This document shows positions 1-19,082 of a stretch of 20,000 bases of DNA, in pieces. The notes beneath the pieces were generated by a model. The model ran no database searches, was not told the origin of the DNA, and saw only the letters and a list, made by a program, of their open reading frames with translations. Origin of the DNA: an uncultured virus (IMG/VR IMGVR_UViG_3300029305_011619) (lineage: Duplodnaviria; Heunggongvirae; Uroviricota; Caudoviricetes); IMG/VR virus record IMGVR_UViG_3300029305_011619. One strand, written 5' to 3'. Position numbers and translations under genes: made by a program. The first letter of the stretch is position 1. Each line of letters starts with the position of its first letter.

Positions 1-852
1 ATTAGTGCGCCGAACAAACCTCTTATGGATAATTTAAGATACCTTAAGGAATTATTGGAGTCTATGATGCCTGCCACACATCATACATCTGCTTTTGCTT
101 ATGTGAATGGAAGATGTACCGTGGATGCAGTAAAGCGTCACCAGCAGAACGGGAGCAAATGGTTTGCAAAATTGGATTTCTCAGACTTTTTTGGTAGCAC
201 CACAGAAGAATTTGTACTGAAAATGTTTAGTATGATTTTCCCCTTTAGCGAGATTGTAAAGACAGAATCAGGATACAATGCATTAAAGACAGCATTAAGC
301 TTATGCTTCTTAGATGGCGGGCTCCCTCAAGGAACACCAATCTCTCCGTTTATTACCAATGTTATGATGATTCCTATTGATCACCATTTATACAACCAGT
401 TACGTAAGTCTGACGATAAATTGATATACACAAGATACGCTGATGATATTCTTGTGTCCTCAAGAAAAACATTTGATCATAAAAAAATTTCGAGTATTAT
501 TGTTGATACATTGCGTAAATTTGACGCCCCATTTTCTATCAATCATAAAAAAACCAGATACGGCTCTTCTTCTGGAAGAAATTGGAATCTTGGATTGATG
601 TTAAATAAAGATAATAATATCACTATCGGTTATAGAAACAAGAAATTTTTCAAAGCTATGTGTAATAACTATTTGCAAGATAAAGCAAATAATATAAATT
701 GGGATTTACATGATGTGCAAGTTTTTTCTGGTAAAATCTCATACTATCGTAGCATAGAGCCAGAATACATCGACTATTTAATTGGTCATTATAATCATAA
801 GTTTAATGCAGATATTCTTAGTCTTATTCATAACGATATTGTAAATTTGTAA
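1..852 (+). CDS. Retron-like reverse transcriptase (5'-truncated by window edge)
   Basis: Frame is open from base 1 (ISAPNKPL.., like the R-x-I-x-AP motif of retron RTs). Motifs: AFAYVNGR..DAVKRH (region X, NAxxH-like), KLDFSDFF, LPQGTPISP, YTRYADD (catalytic), INHKKT, and NLGL where retrons have VTGL. Confidence 0.92.
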   Translation: MSAPNKPLMDNLRYLKELLESMMPATHHTSAFAYVNGRCTVDAVKRHQQNGSKWFAKLDFSDFFGSTTEEFVLKMFSMIFPFSEIVKTESGYNALKTALSLCFLDGGLPQGTPISPFITNVMMIPIDHHLYNQLRKSDDKLIYTRYADDILVSSRKTFDHKKISSIIVDTLRKFDAPFSINHKKTRYGSSSGRNWNLGLMLNKDNNITIGYRNKKFFKAMCNNYLQDKANNINWDLHDVQVFSGKISYYRSIEPEYIDYLIGHYNHKFNADILSLIHNDIVNL

Positions 853-859
853 TTTTTTT

Positions 860-1143
860 TATGGTGTTTATAAAAAAGAATGCGATGAAGATTTATAATA
901 GTACTTCTGTATTGTTATATCTTTGTGTTTTTAGCCAAAGAAATACTAAGTCGAATACTCATTCTCAAACTGAGGTTAATCCTAGCTACCTCCATACCAG
1001 CGAAGACTCCATCAAAGATGGAAGTCGATGCTGGTACAGGAGGATGCTAGATTAACCCTCATCAGCGAATACACCTCAGGCATTAAAATAAAAAGCAGGA
1101 CGATTTTTATTTTTAATAGATTGCATTCTTTGCAAACACCATA
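860..1143 (+). ncRNA. Putative retron msr-msd-like ncRNA, copy 1
   Basis: Inverted repeats aaagaatgcgat (875-886)/attgcattcttt (1120-1131), extended by tatggtgttt (860-869)/aaacaccata (1134-1143). Unpaired G887. Conserved hairpin 921-940. Long imperfect hairpin 971-1061 and AT-rich hairpin 1082-1117. Starts 8 nt after the RT stop. Confidence 0.8.
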
Positions 1144-1149
1144 CAATAT

Positions 1150-1225
1150 TGGGATATCGCCAAGTCGGTAAGGCACAGGACTTTGACTCCTGCATTCGCT
1201 GGTTCGAGTCCAGCTATCCCAGCCA
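1150..1225 (+). tRNA. tRNA-Gln(UUG)
   Basis: Acceptor tgggata/tatccca, anticodon arm cagga-ctTTGac-tcctg, GTTCGAGTC T-loop, encoded CCA. Confidence 0.95.
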
Positions 1226-1479
1226 ATAATATACAATGTAGATTCCCTATAATACATAAGTAAAATAAAAGGGGCTTCGTGTTACAAGCCGAAGTATAAA
1301 AATGTTAAGAGTCTCCGCCTTTGCCAGACGCTTTCAGGCTCCCGAGCCTGAAAAGCTCTTCGCCAAGGCTTCCTGCTTAACGCATTTTTAATATAAATTA
1401 AATTTGCTAATCCATGCGGCGGAATCCGCCGCTTGTATAGCAATTTCTAATTTAGTATTAATAACAGATTGTATATTAT
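1226..1479 (+). ncRNA. Putative retron msr-msd-like ncRNA, copy 2
   Basis: Perfect 12-bp inverted repeat ataatatacaat (1226-1237)/attgtatattat (1468-1479), G1238, AG at 1466-1467. Conserved hairpin cttcg-tgttacaagc-cgaag at 1275-1294. Two long hairpins at 1297-1390 and about 1389-1460. Confidence 0.8.
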
Positions 1480-1484
1480 ATTAT

Positions 1485-1567
<83 letters not shown>

Positions 1568-1668
1568 CAAATTCAGTAGTGAGTACAAAGCCTTACTGAT
1601 TATGCCACAACGTACACCCTTTGCTTAAATCGTCTGTACAACGATGAGCTTAGGAGTGGCAGAGATTA

Positions 1669-1742
1669 GGAATGGTGGTGTAAAGGTAGCATACCCTCGA
1701 CATATAGGGAGGTTTCGGGTTCAAGTCCCAACCATCCGACCA
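1669..1742 (+). pseudogene. Degenerate tRNA-like element
   Basis: D-arm-like gtgtaaaggtagcat, T-loop GTTCAAGTC and ACCA end are present. Acceptor and T stems are mismatched and the anticodon arm is irregular (ccct-cgacatat-aggg). Confidence 0.55.
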
Positions 1743-1914
1743 AAAAGAAAATCTCTTAAAAGTATGAAGTATGAAAAAACGGATTAAATAATAGGATGAC
1801 GACGTGGTTTTGGTTCCACCGAACAAGATAAAAAACCAAGCGAGTAACGATACTGCAGGTCAAACCTCGCATCCGTTCCTATAGGTGAAAGTCCTATGGC
1901 TGAATTTCTAATAC

Positions 1915-1991
1915 GGGCATTTAGCTGAGTTGGTTACAGCACCCGGCTCATAACCGGTAGATCCAAGGTTCGAGTCCTTGAATGCCCACCA
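1915..1991 (+). tRNA. tRNA-Ile2/Met (CAU), probably lysidine-type Ile2
   Basis: Acceptor gggcatt/aatgccc; ccgg-ctCATaa-ccgg arm resembles Firmicutes tRNA-Ile2; CCA. Confidence 0.9.
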
Positions 1992-2019
1992 CTATACGAC
2001 AATACACTGTCGTGTAAAC

Positions 2020-2145
2020 ACCTCTCTTTAGGAGCACCGGTTATTTGTAGTTAGTGTATCAATGCTACAAGAAAGAAACTCCAGGGATAGTGCCGCCCTA
2101 TGTGTGAGCTCGCACACAGCTTTTGCTGGGAAATTCAAGAGAGGT
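2020..2145 (+). ncRNA. Unidentified multibranch structured RNA in a tRNA spacer
   Basis: Closing 9-bp stem acctctctt/aagagaggt. It encloses ggag/ctcc, ttgtagt/gctacaa, aggg/ccct, tgtgtga/tcgcaca and cagc-tttt-gctg helices. Confidence 0.45.
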
Positions 2146-2151
2146 CAATAT

Positions 2152-2394
2152 GCGCCACTAACTCAGTTGGTTAGAGTACCTGGATTTATTAAGGGGGTGT
2201 ACCCAAGTGGTGATGGGGCTGGTCTTATACACCAGTTGCCGACTGTTCGATTCAGTCCACCCCTACCAAATTATTTTTAGGAGAATGCCTATGAAATACG
2301 AATAAGACATAGAGAAGAGTTCTTAATAGACAATGTGTTGTCTAAAAATACTAAATCCAGTTAGTGCGAGGTTCGAGTCCTCGGTGGCGTACCA
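2152..2394 (+). tRNA. Split/interrupted tRNA (anticodon undetermined) with an insertion of about 163 nt in the anticodon arm
   Basis: 5' half gcgccac-ta-actcagttggttagagt-a-cctggattta (2152-2188). 3' half taaatccagt-tagtg-cgaggttcgagtcctcg-gtggcgt-acca (2352-2394). Acceptor, D and T arms are intact; ctggattta/taaatccag pair perfectly. Confidence 0.75.
2193..2268 (+). tRNA. tRNA-Ile(UAU), nested within the split tRNA
   Basis: Acceptor gggggtg/cacccct, anticodon arm ctggt-ctTATac-accag, T arm gactg-ttcgatt-cagtc, ACCA end. Confidence 0.85.
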
Positions 2395-2616
2395 GTTGGA
2401 GAGATGGTAGCATCCCTGACTTCACTCCGTAGGGTGACTCCTACATCAAAGATTATCGGATGCGCATTTTTGGTTTAGAATAAGACTTTTTACGTTGTTA
2501 GGGAAGAAAGGAAATTCAGATTGCAATCGAGTTGGTAAGCTTCACGTTTTAGGTGAAGATTCCACTCAGGTTCCGATACGCCTCTTCACAATGCGTACCA
2601 GATCGGAGCCGCCTCT

Positions 2617-2693
2617 CGAGGTGTAGAACAACTTGGTAGTTCGCTACATTTGGGATGTAGAAGTCGCAGGTTCGAATCCTGTCACCTCGACCA
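2617..2693 (+). tRNA. tRNA-Pro(UGG)
   Basis: Acceptor cgaggtg/cacctcg, ctaca-ttTGGga-tgtag, GTTCGAATC, CCA. Confidence 0.94.
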
Positions 2694-2837
2694 TTGGGTT
2701 TGACTGTACCCTGCCACACAGTTGGGTTTCCTCAGCCATATAAGAGAGGTGCGGCAGCGCGCAGGAGGTTATGCGAGCTAAGCGTCGGTGCTACAGCGAT
2801 GTGATACCAAGTACTGGCAATACACTGTAGTAAATAC

Positions 2838-2924
2838 GGAGAGATGTCCGAGTGGTTTAAGGAGCTAGTCTTGAAAACTAGTGACTCGAAAGAGCCCAGA
2901 GTTCGAATCTCTGTCTCTCCGCCA
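2838..2924 (+). tRNA. tRNA-Ser(UGA)
   Basis: Acceptor ggagaga/tctctcc, ctagt-ctTGAaa-actag, long variable arm, G discriminator and CCA. Confidence 0.95.
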
Positions 2925-2984
2925 TTGCCGGCTTGAGACTCCTCGAGGAGCATCGGCTTCATGAACCGATATGCCGGCCACCAT

Positions 2985-3060
2985 GCTATCGTAGCTCAAT
3001 CGGTAGAGCGACGTATTTGTAATGCGTATGTAGTGAGTTCGAATCTCACCGATAGCTCCA
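2985..3060 (+). tRNA. tRNA-Thr(UGU)
   Basis: Acceptor gctatcg/cgatagc, acgta-ttTGTaa-tgcgt, CCA. Confidence 0.94.
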
Positions 3061-3061
3061 A

Positions 3062-3264
3062 TTTACAATGCATTCGTTTGATTTTTTCAAACACTTTGTG
3101 TTTTTAGCCAAAGAAACGATTTGATGAGGGAATAGTAACGAGATGAGGCGATGCATGACAGCCGGAAGACGCGGACTCAAGAGACAAAAATATACTGCCA
3201 CGACGCCCACGGCCCCTGTACAGCCTTCTCCAGAAGCCCGCTCGAAATATATTTAGATTGTAGA
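3062..3264 (+). ncRNA. Putative retron msr-msd-like ncRNA, copy 3
   Basis: Inverted repeat tttacaat (3062-3069)/attgtaga (3257-3264, one G-U), G3070, AG at 3255-3256. Stem-loop gtttga/tcaaac. Hairpin ctttgtgtttttagccaaag (3094-3113) is identical to 921-940. The GC-rich cargo pairs less clearly than in the other copies. Confidence 0.7.
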
Positions 3265-3281
3265 AAGGAGAATACATATTT

Positions 3282-3632
3282 ATGAGAAGTAGAAATGAAT
3301 TAATACGCTCACTATCAAGGTATTCGTTTACAAATGAGTGTGGAGGAATTTTATTATGGATTCCAAAGTTTGAAGAATTTCTATCCGTATCTTTTGGAGA
3401 TGGTTCTAATTGTGATGATGAGTTTAACGATTATTTACTCATAACAACGTACTCGTTCTGCGATAGCGTAGTATCGCCAGACCATTTTTTAGAAAAGGAT
3501 GGGGGACAACTCGATTTTAAAGAATCTGAAGCTATGTACAAGAATGATATAACGAATACCGTATTTGATGCGTTAGATTTTATGTACGGAGAAGTTTGTG
3601 ATTTTATACCACTAAAAACATATTTGCATTAA
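3282..3632 (+). CDS. Hypothetical protein (acidic)
   Basis: 116-aa ORF with aaggag RBS. Confidence 0.8.
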   Translation: MRSRNELIRSLSRYSFTNECGGILLWIPKFEEFLSVSFGDGSNCDDEFNDYLLITTYSFCDSVVSPDHFLEKDGGQLDFKESEAMYKNDITNTVFDALDFMYGEVCDFIPLKTYLH

Positions 3633-3644
3633 TCGGAGGATTTT

Positions 3645-4199
3645 ATGATTAAACTTAATATCACCGTTGAAGATTTTGATACTCATGCAACATACTATAT
3701 TCAATTACCGTGTCAAATAAAAGATGTTTTGAATTTATCGCATGATTTACAGATTACTGAATGGGATTCATCTATGATGCTTGATTATTGCTCAGATATC
3801 GAATCTCTTAATAAGGTAATCGAAGACATTAACTGCGAAAACCCAAATATGACATTAGAAATTTTAGAAGATATTCTTAAAGCTACATGTTGCAAACTTA
3901 GTGATAAGTTTTTTATAGATAAACTATGTAGTAATGACTTCATGTTGGAGGAAGTCGATACGTCAGGTTATGATATTGATTTAATTTCAGACTCTGAGAG
4001 ATGCGCTCATTATATGGTAACTGAACTTGAGATTCCGTTTGCCAAAAACCTCGGAGGTAAGATGAGCGAAATGAAAATTCGTCCAAAATCTTTTTATGAC
4101 TGGAGAGTTGTTTGGGGTTTATACTCCAAGATGGGATTTCAGTTGTTGAGAATAGGCAGAAACTTATATGTCTTCAACTGGAGAAATGCTTGTGTTTAA
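3645..4199 (+). CDS. Hypothetical protein, possibly ArdA-like antirestriction protein
   Basis: 184 aa, ggagg RBS. The N-terminal pattern LP..ITEWD..DYCSDIESLN..IE recalls the ArdA N-terminus; judged by eye only. Confidence 0.45.
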   Translation: MIKLNITVEDFDTHATYYIQLPCQIKDVLNLSHDLQITEWDSSMMLDYCSDIESLNKVIEDINCENPNMTLEILEDILKATCCKLSDKFFIDKLCSNDFMLEEVDTSGYDIDLISDSERCAHYMVTELEIPFAKNLGGKMSEMKIRPKSFYDWRVVWGLYSKMGFQLLRIGRNLYVFNWRNACV

Positions 4200-4336
4200 T
4201 AACACTATCATCTACGGTACAAATAGACAACAATTCATCTTGTTATTACTACATGTAAAAAAATGGTAAATCTCTCTTTGGGAAGCATTTTGAAGAATTC
4301 AGTGTTTTCAAGGGCTCTAAGGGGGTAAATTTTTAA

Positions 4337-4361
4337 TTTTAGTACCGGGTTGGTACTAAAA
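4337..4361. repeat. Perfect 10-bp inverted repeat in a 250-nt intergenic gap
   Basis: ttttagtacc-gggtt-ggtactaaaa. Confidence 0.6.
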
Positions 4362-4449
4362 ATATTATTTTATTAATGAAATTTGAAGGTTTTGTGATGG
4401 AAAAATTTTTACCAACCAGAATTAAAATATCTTTAAAAGGAAGTAGATT

Positions 4450-4881
4450 ATGAGACACTTTTCAAAAGAAGAATGGTACTTTAATGGGTATACATGGTGT
4501 GGATTGGATAAAAATGCAAATTATTGGTATCCATTCTCTTACGACGACTACGGAACAGCGTATCGTATGACTTTAAATATTAATGATTGTTTAAATCATA
4601 TGACAATAAAAAGAGCTAAAGACCAGATTAAATCAGAGATTAAAAAGAGCCCGTTTTTCAAATATAGATATGAAAAAATCTATATAGTAAATATAAAAGA
4701 GTACCCGACCTTCTATTTTGATTATCTCACCATCGCAAGGAAACATAGAATTAATATAAATCACTTACATAACCAAGACGAAATCGTTAGCCGTTTAGAA
4801 AAGTATGGGTTTACTCCAATTTCTGATAATCAAAAAATTATAGAAATTAGTAAAGAAGAAATTAATCTAGATAATCTATAA
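4450..4881 (+). CDS. Hypothetical protein
   Basis: 143-aa ORF, aaggaag RBS. Confidence 0.75.
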   Translation: MRHFSKEEWYFNGYTWCGLDKNANYWYPFSYDDYGTAYRMTLNINDCLNHMTIKRAKDQIKSEIKKSPFFKYRYEKIYIVNIKEYPTFYFDYLTIARKHRININHLHNQDEIVSRLEKYGFTPISDNQKIIEISKEEINLDNL

Positions 4882-4924
4882 GGACAATTCAATGAACGGA
4901 TATTCTTATATAGGAGGTATTATA

Positions 4925-5245
4925 ATGATAATTCAAATTTGGAATAGCGAAGACGAAATAGGATATAAGCAGATAACCACATTTTATTCAGATTTTTCAA
5001 TAGCAGATATTTTTGGTGTTGACGGTGTAAAAGACACATTTAACAGAGCGTTTGAGAATTGGAAAGATGACTATAAATATCTAACAGAGCTTATTTTAGT
5101 TCTTAACAGAAAAAGCTGGTATTATGTAGATGATAATAAGGAGTTGTCGTCGTTGTACACCGAGTTGTATTATAAGGCTTCTGAATATGCGATAGCAACA
5201 TTAAAGGGAGAAGAATTAAAATACTATCTTGATATTACAGATTAA
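4925..5245 (+). CDS. Phage hypothetical protein
   Basis: Start moved to ATG 4925, behind a ggaggt RBS. TTFYSDFSIADIFG..KDTFNRAF..WK.DYKYLTEL pattern; no function assigned. Confidence 0.8.
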   Translation: MIIQIWNSEDEIGYKQITTFYSDFSIADIFGVDGVKDTFNRAFENWKDDYKYLTELILVLNRKSWYYVDDNKELSSLYTELYYKASEYAIATLKGEELKYYLDITD

Positions 5246-5810: not shown

Positions 5811-6359
5811 ATGAAAAAAGTTTTAGTAGTTGTTGATATGCAACACGATTTTATCGATGGGGCATTAGGAAGTGAAGACGCTCGTCAGATTGTAGATAAT
5901 GTTGCAGAAAAAATCAAAGGATTTGACGGAGATATCGTATTCACAATGGATACACATTCAGAAAAATACTTAACTACACAAGAAGGATATAAACTTCCTG
6001 TTCCGCATTGCATTAAAGATACTGACGGATGGGCTTTAAATGATGTTGTTTGTGTAGCAACCAAACAAAAGAGAGTTGGCTATAAAGTATTTATGAAAGA
6101 TACATTTGGTTCTATGGAGCTTGCAAAGTTTTTAGCCGACCATCAGTATTGCTATGTTGAATTTGTAGGTTTATGCACAGACATTTGTGTTATCTCAAAC
6201 GCTATGTTAGCCAAAGCCTCTGTTCCGGAAGCACAAATTGTAGTAGATGCTTCTTGTTGTGCCGGAGTGACTCAAGAGAGCCATAAAAATGCATTAGCCG
6301 CTATGAGTCAATGTCAAATTGAGATTGTTAATTATAATATCTTAAATAAAGATAATTAA
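5811..6359 (+). CDS. pncA: Nicotinamidase/pyrazinamidase (isochorismatase-family cysteine hydrolase)
   Basis: VVVDMQHDF, MDTH, PHC, K, and GLCTDICV catalytic and metal motifs. Confidence 0.88.
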   Translation: MKKVLVVVDMQHDFIDGALGSEDARQIVDNVAEKIKGFDGDIVFTMDTHSEKYLTTQEGYKLPVPHCIKDTDGWALNDVVCVATKQKRVGYKVFMKDTFGSMELAKFLADHQYCYVEFVGLCTDICVISNAMLAKASVPEAQIVVDASCCAGVTQESHKNALAAMSQCQIEIVNYNILNKDN

Positions 6360-8374: not shown

Positions 8375-8755
8375 ATGAATAAAACATTTATATTTTTACT
8401 GATGATATTTTGCCATATCGTAGATGACTATTATCTACAGGGTTGGCTTGCATCAGCAAAACAAAAGAAGTATTGGGCAGAAAATGCTCCTGATAAGATG
8501 TATAGGTACGATTACATATGTGCTTTGATTATTCATAGTTTTAGTTGGGCGTTTATGATTATGCTTCCGGTTGCATTCTTTATAAACTTTAATATCAATT
8601 TGGGGTTTGTAGCGATGTTTGTATGGAATGTTATGATTCATGGCGTTACAGATGATGCTAAAGCAAACAAAAAGAAGATTAATTTAATCCAAGATCAAAT
8701 AATTCATCTTGCTCAGATTGTTTTAACATTTTTATTTTTAGTTGTTGGATTTTAA
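8375..8755 (+). CDS. DUF3307-like membrane protein
   Basis: HIVDDYYLQ, IHS, IHGVTD, DQIIH pattern with hydrophobic helices. Confidence 0.75.
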   Translation: MNKTFIFLLMIFCHIVDDYYLQGWLASAKQKKYWAENAPDKMYRYDYICALIIHSFSWAFMIMLPVAFFINFNINLGFVAMFVWNVMIHGVTDDAKANKKKINLIQDQIIHLAQIVLTFLFLVVGF

Positions 8756-8769
8756 AGGAGAATAATTAT

Positions 8770-9006
8770 ATGAAAGTATCAGAAATGATTAAAAACTTGC
8801 AGGATTTTATGGAAGAAAACGGCGATACTGATTGTTATTATGCTTTCGATGATGAGGGTAATGGCTATAAAGAGGTTTATTATAAACCAACTTTGATGCT
8901 TGAAAATCCCTATGGAGATTTATATTCGGTTAAAGAGATTGAAGAAGACGACAGCTTAGATGAAGACGAAAGAGCTGAATTCAAAAAAGTCTGCATTGTG
9001 AACTGA
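8770..9006 (+). CDS. Hypothetical protein (acidic)
   Basis: 78 aa, aaggag RBS. Confidence 0.75.
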   Translation: MKVSEMIKNLQDFMEENGDTDCYYAFDDEGNGYKEVYYKPTLMLENPYGDLYSVKEIEEDDSLDEDERAEFKKVCIVN

Positions 9007-12938: not shown

Positions 12939-13382
12939 ATGAAAGAATTTTCAATTCTTGTTTTTGAAGGAGCGAATTTTTATTTAAGTAATTTCTATAA
13001 CGCTCCTGTAATGTATGAAGGAATCTTATACCAGAATAACGAGGCTGCATTTCAATCAGCAAAAACATTAGATATGTCTAAAAGACGGTATTTTGCTAAA
13101 TTGAATCCTTCTGATGCAAAGAAAGAAGGACGAAGAATTAAGTTAAGAGAGGACTGGGAACACGTCAAATTCGATGTTATGTATCAAATTTGTCTTGATA
13201 AATTCCAGCGAAACGAGGAACTTCGGAAGAAGTTGCTATCAACAAAAGATGCATATCTTGTAGAGGGCAATACATGGCACGATAATTGTTGGGGTAATTG
13301 TCATTGCCAGAAATGTATAGATATCCCCGGTGACAACTTATTAGGGCAAATACTTATGAAAGTTCGAGAAGAACTGCGATAA
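12939..13382 (+). CDS. NADAR family protein (YbiA/RibX-like)
   Basis: YLSNFY, NEAAFQSAK, AKKEGR, DWE..K..VM, KF.RN, LVEGN.W.D..WG, G.NLLG.ILM.VR. Confidence 0.9.
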   Translation: MKEFSILVFEGANFYLSNFYNAPVMYEGILYQNNEAAFQSAKTLDMSKRRYFAKLNPSDAKKEGRRIKLREDWEHVKFDVMYQICLDKFQRNEELRKKLLSTKDAYLVEGNTWHDNCWGNCHCQKCIDIPGDNLLGQILMKVREELR

Positions 13383-17696: not shown

Positions 17697-17886
17697 CTAT
17701 GAGCGTAATCATAAGTTTGAAATTACAGTAGACGAAGCTGTATGTCTGGTAGAGTTTTTAGAAGCAGAATTTATACAAGGAATTGGTAGCGACCCAGACT
17801 GCATAGATCTATGGTATGTTAAAAACATACGTTCTGTATATGATAAACTCCAACAATTCACTGACATACATAATGGGGGTAATTAA
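17677..17886 (+). CDS. Hypothetical protein
   Basis: 69 aa, gagagg RBS. Confidence 0.6.
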   Translation: MMGRNRSYERNHKFEITVDEAVCLVEFLEAEFIQGIGSDPDCIDLWYVKNIRSVYDKLQQFTDIHNGGN

Positions 17887-17887
17887 T

Positions 17888-18355
17888 TTGATTAAGCATA
17901 TTAAATGCGATGTATTAAAAGCAGAAGCAGACGTTATTTGTCATCAGGTAAATTGCCAAGGTGTTATGGGAAGCGGAGTGGCTAAACAAATCAGAAATAA
18001 ATATCCTGAGGTTTTTGAAAAATATAATAAGTTTTGCTCCCACTTTGATAAAACTGATACCGAAAAAATGCTTGGTATGGTAGTTCCTGTAATGGTAGAA
18101 GATAACCGGAAGTTAGTTTGTAATCTGTTTTCTCAGAATAATTTTGGCTATGACGGTGGTCTATACACGGATTATAAAGCAATGAAGAAGTGTTTAAAGT
18201 ATGTAAGAGAAAATATCTCTCACGATCATGTAATTGCAATTCCATATTTAATGGGTTGTTATAGAGGCGGAGGAGATTGGAGTGTAGTATATAAATTAAT
18301 AGAAGAAATTTTAGGAGATAGAGAGGTGTTAATTTGTGAGTATGACGGAAAATAA
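17888..18355 (+). CDS. Macro domain protein (ADP-ribose binding/hydrolase)
   Basis: ICHQVNCQGVMGSGVAKQI and IAIPY.MGC.RGGGDW..V. Likely TTG start at 17888 after gggggt. Confidence 0.88.
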   Translation: MIKHIKCDVLKAEADVICHQVNCQGVMGSGVAKQIRNKYPEVFEKYNKFCSHFDKTDTEKMLGMVVPVMVEDNRKLVCNLFSQNNFGYDGGLYTDYKAMKKCLKYVRENISHDHVIAIPYLMGCYRGGGDWSVVYKLIEEILGDREVLICEYDGK

Positions 18356-19082
18356 ATTTGATCCAAAAATGGTCAAAGAAAGAATTATTAAGTGGATTCG
18401 GGAATGGTTTGAAGTAAACGGTAACGGATGCAATGCCGTTATAGGAATCTCAGGGGGGAAAGATAGTTCGATTTGCGCGGCTCTATGTGTAGAGGCGTTA
18501 GGAAAAGATAGAGTAGTTGGTGTTTTGATGCCGAATATAACACAAGATGATATTATTGATAGTTATAGAGTGGTTGAATTTTTAGGTATTCAATCTTACA
18601 CAATCCCGATTACTTTACCAGTTGCTAGTATACATAGTCAACTGGAGTATAGTGGTATGAATGTTACAAACCAAACCGCAATTAACCTACCGGCTAGGAT
18701 TAGAATGTCTGTTTTGTACGCTGTATCTCAATCATTAAACGGTAGAGTTATAAATACGTGTAATTTATCAGAAAATTGGATTGGGTATTCTACAAGATAT
18801 GGTGATGATGCAGGAGACATGTCTCCATTAGGAGATTTAACTGTCAAAGAAATCAAAATGTTAGGAAGAGAATTGGGCTTACCTATTGATCTTGTTGATA
18901 AAACACCGTCAGACGGTTTGTGCGGGAAAACAGACGAAGATAATTTTGGGTTTAGTTATGATGCTTTAGATAATTATATTCTTAACGGTGAATGCAGTGA
19001 CGAAGAAATCCGGGCTAAGATAGATGATTTACACAAGAAAAATCTATTTAAAACAAGACCTATGCCAACTTTTATAATGTAA
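18342..19082 (+). CDS. nadE: NH3-dependent NAD+ synthetase
   Basis: GISGGKDS PP-loop, NLPARIRM, NLSE..IGYSTRYGD, PSDGL, DE..FGFSY..LD. Confidence 0.93.
   Translation: MTENKFDPKMVKERIIKWIREWFEVNGNGCNAVIGISGGKDSSICAALCVEALGKDRVVGVLMPNITQDDIIDSYRVVEFLGIQSYTIPITLPVASIHSQLEYSGMNVTNQTAINLPARIRMSVLYAVSQSLNGRVINTCNLSENWIGYSTRYGDDAGDMSPLGDLTVKEIKMLGRELGLPIDLVDKTPSDGLCGKTDEDNFGFSYDALDNYILNGECSDEEIRAKIDDLHKKNLFKTRPMPTFIM

Follow-up and report, generated by a model that had tools for sequence, protein, structure and literature searches.

A complete tRNA-Ile(UAU) gene lies inside the anticodon loop of a second tRNA gene in the tRNA cluster of a gut phage, and the arrangement is best read as the outcome of a DNA insertion in which the inner tRNA-Ile would work, the outer gene would be a dead shell and no new spliced or two-piece tRNA would be made. 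We give this reading a probability of roughly 0.6. The original prediction had leaned towards an outer tRNA that is processed into two pieces or spliced, for which we find less support than for an insertion scar. As a scar, the locus would be a clean snapshot of gene gain and loss in phage tRNA clusters, with a whole tRNA gene caught within the anticodon of another; no tRNA gene inside a tRNA gene was found in searches of the literature on nested and interrupted tRNA genes and on insertions in phage tRNA clusters.

The stretch of DNA analysed, called here the window (20,000 nucleotides), is the final 20 kb of a 46.4-kb IMG/VR virus record (GC content 35%) whose completeness is put at 39% by CheckV; the full genome is predicted to be roughly 115-120 kb, as in complete relatives. 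Besides many small ORFs, the record codes for a portal protein, a large terminase, two tyrosine integrases and a GIY-YIG homing endonuclease, a gene content that identifies it as a tailed phage. The tRNA cluster extends over positions 1150-3060 and comprises seven genes called by both ARAGORN and Rfam, each with an encoded CCA. Also present, at 1669-1742, is a degenerate tRNA-like gene that ARAGORN calls at a lowered threshold only; its anticodon loop (acat) has 8 nt, its T arm is good and ACCA is encoded. Upstream of the cluster lies the gene of a retron-type reverse transcriptase, RT (genome positions 26090-27256, window 1-852, with the gene end at 852). Its best NCBIfam match is the retron St85 family (E 1.4e-55, 188.7 bits, below the model cut-off of 235 bits) and its best PADLOC match is RT_II-A (177.6 bits). 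A ThiF/E1-like gene and a weakly JAB-like gene are located directly upstream of it. Relatives of this RT (L037-L102), 36-59% identical, were recovered from 14 viral and 51 metagenome loci, and several of them lie within a few kb of a tRNA cluster.

The outer gene is divided into a 5' part (2152..2188) and a 3' part (2353..2394), all of its elements being on the plus strand. The acceptor strands are located at 2152-2158 and 2384-2390, the D arm at 2161-2177, the anticodon-stem strands at 2180-2184 and 2356-2360, the variable region at 2361-2366 and the T arm at 2367-2383, followed by A73 (2391) and CCA (2392-2394). The first four bases of the anticodon loop, TTTA, occupy 2185-2188 and the last three, AAA, occupy 2353-2355. 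All stems and conserved bases are intact: the acceptor stem has 7 bp including a G1-U72 pair, the D stem 4 bp and the T stem 5 bp, and the T loop reads TTCGAGT. Hence the complete acceptor, D and T arms with ACCA that were first described for this gene are borne out by the sequence and by ARAGORN on closed-up slices. With the insert sliced out in one register, ARAGORN called a tRNA in eight of eight closures (77 nt, anticodon taa or tta), and in the other register it called 79-nt tRNAs with anticodon taa or tat; when the inner tRNA alone was deleted, the outer gene was read as an intron-bearing tRNA. On the native sequence with introns allowed, ARAGORN reports only the inner tRNA-Ile(tat) and leaves the outer gene uncalled, so that genes of this kind are missed by standard tRNA finders. 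The minimum free energy (MFE) fold of 2152-2394 retains the outer acceptor stem, the D arm, a 9-bp stem at the junction and the T arm (z = -3.04; none of 200 shuffles was as stable).

The anticodon of the outer gene cannot be read with certainty, as had been stated at the outset, since closures giving UAA, UAU (TTTAT+AA) and UUA were all accepted by ARAGORN. The most economical closure joins TTTA to AAA and yields the loop TTTAAAA, with anticodon UAA, on the stem CTGGA/TCCAG. Besides parsimony, two lines of evidence favour it. The closest tRNA to the outer gene, in a comparison set of 112 tRNAs (70 unique) from related loci and records plus the seven of the window, is an uninterrupted 77-nt tRNA(UAA) at L056 2981-3057. 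Its identity is 75%, where the 77 unique tRNAs compared average 61% (sd 4%); this is a modest similarity, and its margin follows in part from the loop closure chosen. Over the 42 nt of the 3' part the identity is 78.6%. Both genes have the AATAT leader and the arm TGGATTTAAAATCCA, and the L056 tRNA has a GCGCC... acceptor, A73 and CCA. In addition, class II tRNA-Leu(UAA) genes of the relatives carry arms of the type GGA-TTTAAAA-TCC. The body of the outer gene is class I, which makes its amino-acid identity ambiguous, and a BLAST search of the outer halves against phage records returned mixed isotypes, with tRNA-Lys among the most frequent in the matches listed. Most likely the outer gene, whose class I body bears an anticodon arm of the Leu(UAA) type, was a reader of UUA codons; the inner (UAU) and outer (UAA) anticodons probably differ. 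The L056 gene is located 470 nt downstream of a homologous RT gene, whose product is 51% identical to that of the window phage and thus marks a distant relative. An uninterrupted allele, suggested earlier as something to look for, has therefore a distant counterpart near an RT gene, and no close relative carrying the locus was found in the scans of viral, metagenome and genome collections.

Under the UAA closure the insert spans 2189..2352 (plus strand), its boundary being set by comparison with the uninterrupted L056 tRNA(UAA), and it would separate anticodon positions A35 and A36. Its length is then 164 nt, close to the 163 nt first given for the replacement of the loop, and its boundaries move by 1-2 nt under the other closures. 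Of this length, 76 nt are the inner tRNA-Ile(UAU) (2193..2268, plus strand), complete with CCA, with its anticodon at 2226-2228, a G1-U72 wobble pair and A73. ARAGORN (tRNA-Ile(tat)) and Rfam (RF00005, 64.4 bits, E 3.4e-12) concur with the first reading of this segment as a whole tRNA. The insert contains no ORF of at least 60 aa of its own.

The remainder of the insert is dominated by a spacer unit of 79 nt (2272..2350, plus strand), retrieved by a repeat search and bounded by a perfect, AU-rich 9-bp terminal inverted repeat (2272-2280/2342-2350). The repeat is not due to chance, as a terminal stem of at least 9 bp appeared in 41 of 200,000 shuffles; the record as a whole has 0.71 perfect inverted repeats of 9 bp per kb. 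The second stem proposed at these positions is thus exact as a repeat, but it is missing from the MFE folds, and the fold of the spacer has z = -1.6. The repeat could mark both ends of a small DNA element, or it could be a weak helix in the RNA. Terminal inverted repeats are a hallmark of transposons and MITEs; neither multiple copies nor a target-site duplication, which would support that status, was found in the 46-kb record and the 66 related loci, where no second copy of the unit is present. An AAT repeat flanking the unit fits only if the right end is moved by 3 nt. With the outer stem, the spacer repeat would enclose the inner tRNA in a neat three-way junction. A search of the spacer for a sigma-70-type promoter found none.

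The pairing at the junction had been taken as an argument against a random insertion, and this argument does not hold. The 9-bp complement 2180-2188/2352-2360 is indeed exact and uninterrupted, as first described. Nevertheless, five of its nine pairs (2180-2184/2356-2360) are the ordinary anticodon stem, and three more (2185:2355, 2186:2354 and 2187:2353) are U32-A38, U33-A37 and U34-A36 of the palindromic loop TTTAAAA, split centrally, which leaves 2188:2352 as the sole pair that uses a base of the insert. What was called an extension of the stem consists therefore of three loop-palindrome pairs and one pair with an insert base. For five extra pairs a naive shuffle of the flanks gave P = 0.007, under a null model that is blind to the loop palindrome. 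Since the palindrome supplies three of the four pairs beyond the stem, the pairing is no evidence of design, and much of the design-like pairing at junctions of this kind can stem from a palindromic anticodon loop.

Comparison with related loci points to the nested gene as extra material. Immediately before it, between two tRNA genes, lies a conserved structured non-coding element (1992..2151, plus strand), with a mean column identity of 92% in the alignment and 5 of 50 pairs covarying in the consensus fold. It is 160 nt long in the window (about 155 nt across loci) and adopts a multi-stem fold with an 8-bp closing helix, ACCTCTCTT/AAGAGAGGT. Its counterparts are at L042 9751-9905, L063 about 8749-8905 and L065 about 8718-8875, loci in which the RT proteins are only 55-56% identical to that of the window phage despite the 92% identity of the element. 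In these three loci the end of the element directly abuts the 5' end of a tRNA-Pro gene, whereas in the window it abuts the 5' end of the outer tRNA and tRNA-Pro comes 465 nt later. Because the relatives pass directly from element to tRNA-Pro, the nested gene and the 222 nt that follow it (2152-2616 in total) are extra in the window. Moreover, a test in which each tRNA was deleted and the sequence scanned anew, a procedure that does bring out the outer gene here, gave no nested case for the 86 tRNAs of the 66 related loci; by this test the nested layout is not a feature of the lineage.

In wider searches, the exact patterns of the outer 5' half, the closed-up outer arm and the inner tRNA had no match in viral contigs, nor did those of the outer 5' half and the inner tRNA in genome contigs. 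BLAST of the outer halves and the insert against 50,697 phage records returned generic tRNA similarity only, and in the RT-linked loci (14 viral, 51 metagenome) blastn-short detected nothing homologous to the halves, to the inner tRNA or to the spacer. A 26-mer of the T arm and acceptor matched 33 loci, all of which proved to be unrelated tRNAs flanking prophage-type records, and a scan with a pattern of the conserved element returned only the contig already known.

Codon use is consistent with a useful inner tRNA. The counts were confined to ORFs of 120 aa or longer, 38 in all, that lie on the dominant strand in each half of the record. Among their 830 Ile codons, 252 are AUA (25 per 1000 codons), a frequency at which a tRNA-Ile(UAU) is clearly of use. 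UUA is the commonest Leu codon (315) and TAA the commonest stop (22 of the 38 ORFs). An active suppressor with anticodon UUA would be harmful, and under the UAA reading the outer tRNA would be useful but broken.

The reading as an insertion scar brings these observations together: the layout is real, the palindrome explains the pairing, the L056 tRNA gives an uninterrupted counterpart, the nested gene belongs to extra material, no splicing machinery was found and the inner tRNA is useful. The further debris in the cluster (1669-1742) and the lack of the layout among 86 tRNAs in 66 loci point the same way. Under this reading a gene of the tRNA(UAA) type in the phage cluster would have been broken at the DNA level by a segment of about 164 bp that entered its anticodon centrally, separating A35 from A36, and the inserted tRNA alone would still be functional. 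The segment would have brought a complete tRNA-Ile(UAU) and the 79-bp unit with its 9-bp terminal inverted repeats, the latter perhaps as a second, separate small insertion. Precursors of tRNAs are commonly matured by RNase P and by 3' processing. The cluster would be transcribed as a single precursor, from which RNase P and 3' processing would free the inner tRNA-Ile for AUA codons; the outer halves, devoid of an anticodon loop, would be a non-decoding relic that provides at most sites for RNase P and CCA-end processing.

As to the route of arrival, gene conversion after a double-strand break, in the style of the free-standing homing endonucleases, or an illegitimate recombination of tRNA cassettes would be most likely. 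The nearest documented process would be the conversion driven by T4 SegB, which, according to PMC2330249, is a free-standing homing endonuclease in a phage tRNA cluster that recognises a motif of the T stem-loop. The likeness to that account lies in the turnover of tRNA genes at the DNA level within a phage cluster, in a target placed in a tRNA gene and in tRNA genes that travel along; it differs in that the site here is the anticodon and not the T stem-loop, that the insert neither contains nor adjoins a nuclease gene and that no relative displays the site in empty or filled form. In the tRNA-dependent lysogeny of actinobacteriophages, as outlined in PMC10865867, a whole prophage enters a host tRNA gene by means of a tyrosine integrase and carries a tRNA whose isotype is the same. 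In both cases a tRNA gene is disrupted by entering DNA that fails to restore it and that brings a tRNA gene along; here only 164 bp have entered a tRNA gene of the phage itself, the isotypes probably differ and no att-like repeats were seen. Direct repeats of the 3' part of the tRNA (attL/attR) are absent around the insert, the sole repeats being generic T-arm families, and with no repeat of the 3' half the mark of an integrase-mediated insertion is missing.

Several observations count against the reading as a scar. The outer stems and conserved bases are all intact, which implies either a recent insertion or selection acting on the shell. Neither the insert nor the cluster contains a nuclease gene, and no target-site duplication (TA, TTAA or AAAT) was recognised by eye at the insert ends without moving an end. 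As the record holds no second copy of the spacer, the mechanism of insertion stays conjectural. The spacer repeat is non-random and could form a three-way junction with the outer stem. Finally, one relative has four interrupted tRNA-like genes, which raises the possibility that interrupted tRNAs are kept for a reason.

These four genes lie in tandem on the minus strand of the relative G002 (L104, G002:C1:61500-62800), at 930-812, 715-599, about 590-490 and 473-351. In each the acceptor, D and T arms are intact and the anticodon arm is interrupted by an insert of 40-58 nt; the Rfam tRNA model gives three of them 38.6-49.8 bits, and the fourth was read by eye. ARAGORN placed introns inconsistently in them and its intron models were left unused. 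The inserts have a common hairpin followed by ACAGCAAT, a module also found in intergenic spacers, and the record (79% complete) holds no RtcB, RNA ligase or EndA.

A functional RNA module is the alternative that survives best, if only as a tentative one. The shell, folded around the insert, would have its acceptor/T-arm helix recognised by RNase P and the 3'-end enzymes and, once the inner tRNA is freed, would persist as a nicked, anticodon-less RNA resembling a tRNA. It might then be a decoy or sponge directed at tRNA-targeting nucleases of the host or at enzymes that bind tRNA, or else a scaffold for processing on which the tRNA-Ile yield depends. The intact outer cloverleaf, the fold stability (z = -3.04), the non-random spacer repeat that abuts the outer stem with a 1-nt offset and the four G002 genes speak for it, as do an RtcB gene in the related record G001 and an RNA ligase gene in G004, a sign that tRNA-cleaving defences press on phages of this group. 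On the other hand, the layout is kept in none of the 66 related loci, the AU stem of 9 bp has little strength and does not appear in the MFE fold (spacer z = -1.6), and the junction pairing is that of the loop palindrome. The G002 inserts, moreover, have no sequence in common with the 164-nt insert, and the ACAGCAAT motif that they carry is present no more than 1 + 2 times in the record of the window. The roles first suggested for the outer halves, namely decoy, scaffold or substrate for ligation, find no support, as neither ligase nor EndA was found in the 46-kb fragment (39% of the genome) and none of the 86 tRNAs is nested; they retain a low probability, given the RNA-repair genes of the two relatives. 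It is a comparably speculative proposal that the lineage deliberately keeps interrupted tRNA genes, the shell and the four G002 genes then being working RNAs, as anticodon-less tRNA mimics that absorb or divert tRNA-cleaving host defences or as two-in-one precursors with an inner cargo freed by RNase P, or that new small tRNA-carrying cassettes home to the centre of anticodon loops. If true, the shell would represent a new phage tRNA mimic, or the insert a new mobile element targeting anticodon loops, and either would bear on the arms race over tRNA-cleaving defences.

A like-for-like cut and replacement is unlikely. The outer gene would here have been a tRNA-Ile(UAU) cut by a homing endonuclease, and the insert would be a nuclease-free remnant that supplies a cleavage-resistant tRNA-Ile. 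The closure TTTAT+AA does give a canonical loop with anticodon UAU that ARAGORN accepts, but it needs two chance pairs with insert bases against one for UAA, and the closest uninterrupted tRNA carries UAA. Of the eight genes in the cluster, only the inner and the outer one combine the G1-U72 wobble with A73; nonetheless their identity is only 53%, which unrelated tRNAs of the cluster reach as well, and the CTGG/CCAG stem core is found as well in the tRNA-Leu(UAG) of the cluster. A GIY-YIG homing endonuclease gene does exist elsewhere in the record, but it is the sole one and lies about 18 kb from the insert, no HNH, GIY-YIG or LAGLIDADG gene being found in or beside the insert; the ORFs flanking the cluster have no nuclease match in PHROG or Pfam.

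Removal of the insert at the RNA level, by cleavage near the junctions and ligation of the RtcB or Rnl type to give two tRNAs per precursor, is improbable. Its attraction is that closure at a single point restores a canonical 7-nt loop on a 5-bp stem and that RNA ligases occur in two relatives. An intervening sequence in the anticodon loop of a UAA tRNA resembles a group I intron, and the insert site is one base from the classical intron site of tRNA-Leu(UAA), CUU/.../AAAA (10.1101/2020.01.27.920355). The insert differs from such introns, however, in that it has no catalytic core, has the wrong bases at -1 and omega and consists of 164 nt that include a 76-nt tRNA. In agreement with the earlier statement that no group I core is present, Rfam at E <= 5 found neither Intron_gpI nor any ribozyme on either strand of 900-3300. 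The rule given by Williams (10.1101/2020.01.27.920355) places U at -1 and G as the last base of group I introns, whereas the UAA closure has A2188 and T2352 at these positions and the UUA closure in the same register has T2187 and C2351, neither pair agreeing with the rule. Self-splicing of the insert is not expected.

In archaea, intron-containing and split tRNA genes are interrupted in the anticodon arm and a helix joins the halves. The phage locus resembles them in both respects, but no bulge-helix-bulge (two 3-nt bulges, 4-bp helix) was seen by eye at the junction, where the helix consists of nine unbroken pairs; EndA (PF01974) has no match in the 46-kb record (39% complete) or in four related records, and the gene content is that of a tailed phage. 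A search for RtcB or Rnl-type ligases, suggested together with the split-tRNA reading, found neither RtcB nor RNA ligases of two families in the 46-kb fragment, the blank for PF09511 being uninformative because this control was silent in 14 of 14 control genomes; the RtcB of G001 and the RNA ligase of G004 come from among the four related records. Cuts by RNase P and at the 3' end around the inner tRNA would leave TTAA and 84 nt in the loop instead of 7 nt, and a product with anticodon UUA would read TAA, the commonest stop of the phage.

The nested layout is confirmed as real. For window positions 1000-5000, a share of 0.48 or more of the words sampled was matched in each of six DNA runs, with no RNA run among the matches listed, and Logan contigs from four of them were compared with the region, the best-matching run being left out as the possible source sample. 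The 5' junction is covered with 0 differences by contigs of X3 (2149-2350) and X5 (2137-2314), and the 3' junction, also with 0 differences, by contigs of X2 (2239-2686) and X5 (2308-2686); no contig of the four runs joins across the insert. These contigs have low depth (2-5x), are identical in sequence and may come from one sampling campaign, so they show presence and are uninformative on variation. A joint from 1957 to 2147 in run X6 was considered as an alternative allele and rejected, as its letters come from the tRNA of another organism. A chimeric join of tRNA genes, conceivable because tRNA clusters are rich in repeats and the window comes from a metagenome assembly, and named at the outset as what might undo the finding, can be dismissed given that both junctions were reproduced at 100% identity in three other runs.

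Several features of the surroundings deserve mention. The conserved element at 1992-2151, which has no Rfam match, might be the RNA of the neighbouring RT, given that this is of the retron type; its position, however, is 1.1-2.4 kb downstream of the RT gene, not immediately upstream of it. In the 222-nt spacer that follows the nested gene there are a sub-threshold match to the abiF RNA motif RF03085 (2572-2608; E 0.006, with 30.7 bits where the gathering score is 37) and a 7-bp acceptor-like pairing (2462-2468/2590-2596) followed by ACCA. The region 2400-2620 was considered as a paralogue of the nested unit and rejected, with a local score of 29 against a shuffle mean of 26.8 and common 9-mers at the level of chance. 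Among the relatives, two otherwise class I tRNAs carry a hairpin insert in the variable region, a tRNA-Phe(GAA)-like gene at L105 1469-1363 (minus strand; 35 extra nt) and a 96-nt tRNA-Ile(UAU) at L106 124-219. Suppressor-type tRNAs were also observed, at L038 10260-10333 (the same gene in L057 and L117) and L054 7288-7363, one lineage having the anticodon UCA and a second one UUA; stop codons may be reassigned in the phage group, and the present record reads well with the standard code. Finally, NAD-related genes are dispersed in the window at 12939-13382, 17816-18355, 18336-19082 and 5811-6359, a set comprising a NADAR protein, a weak Macro-domain match, an NAD synthase and an isochorismatase-family protein, which possibly serve as a counter-measure against NAD-depleting defences.
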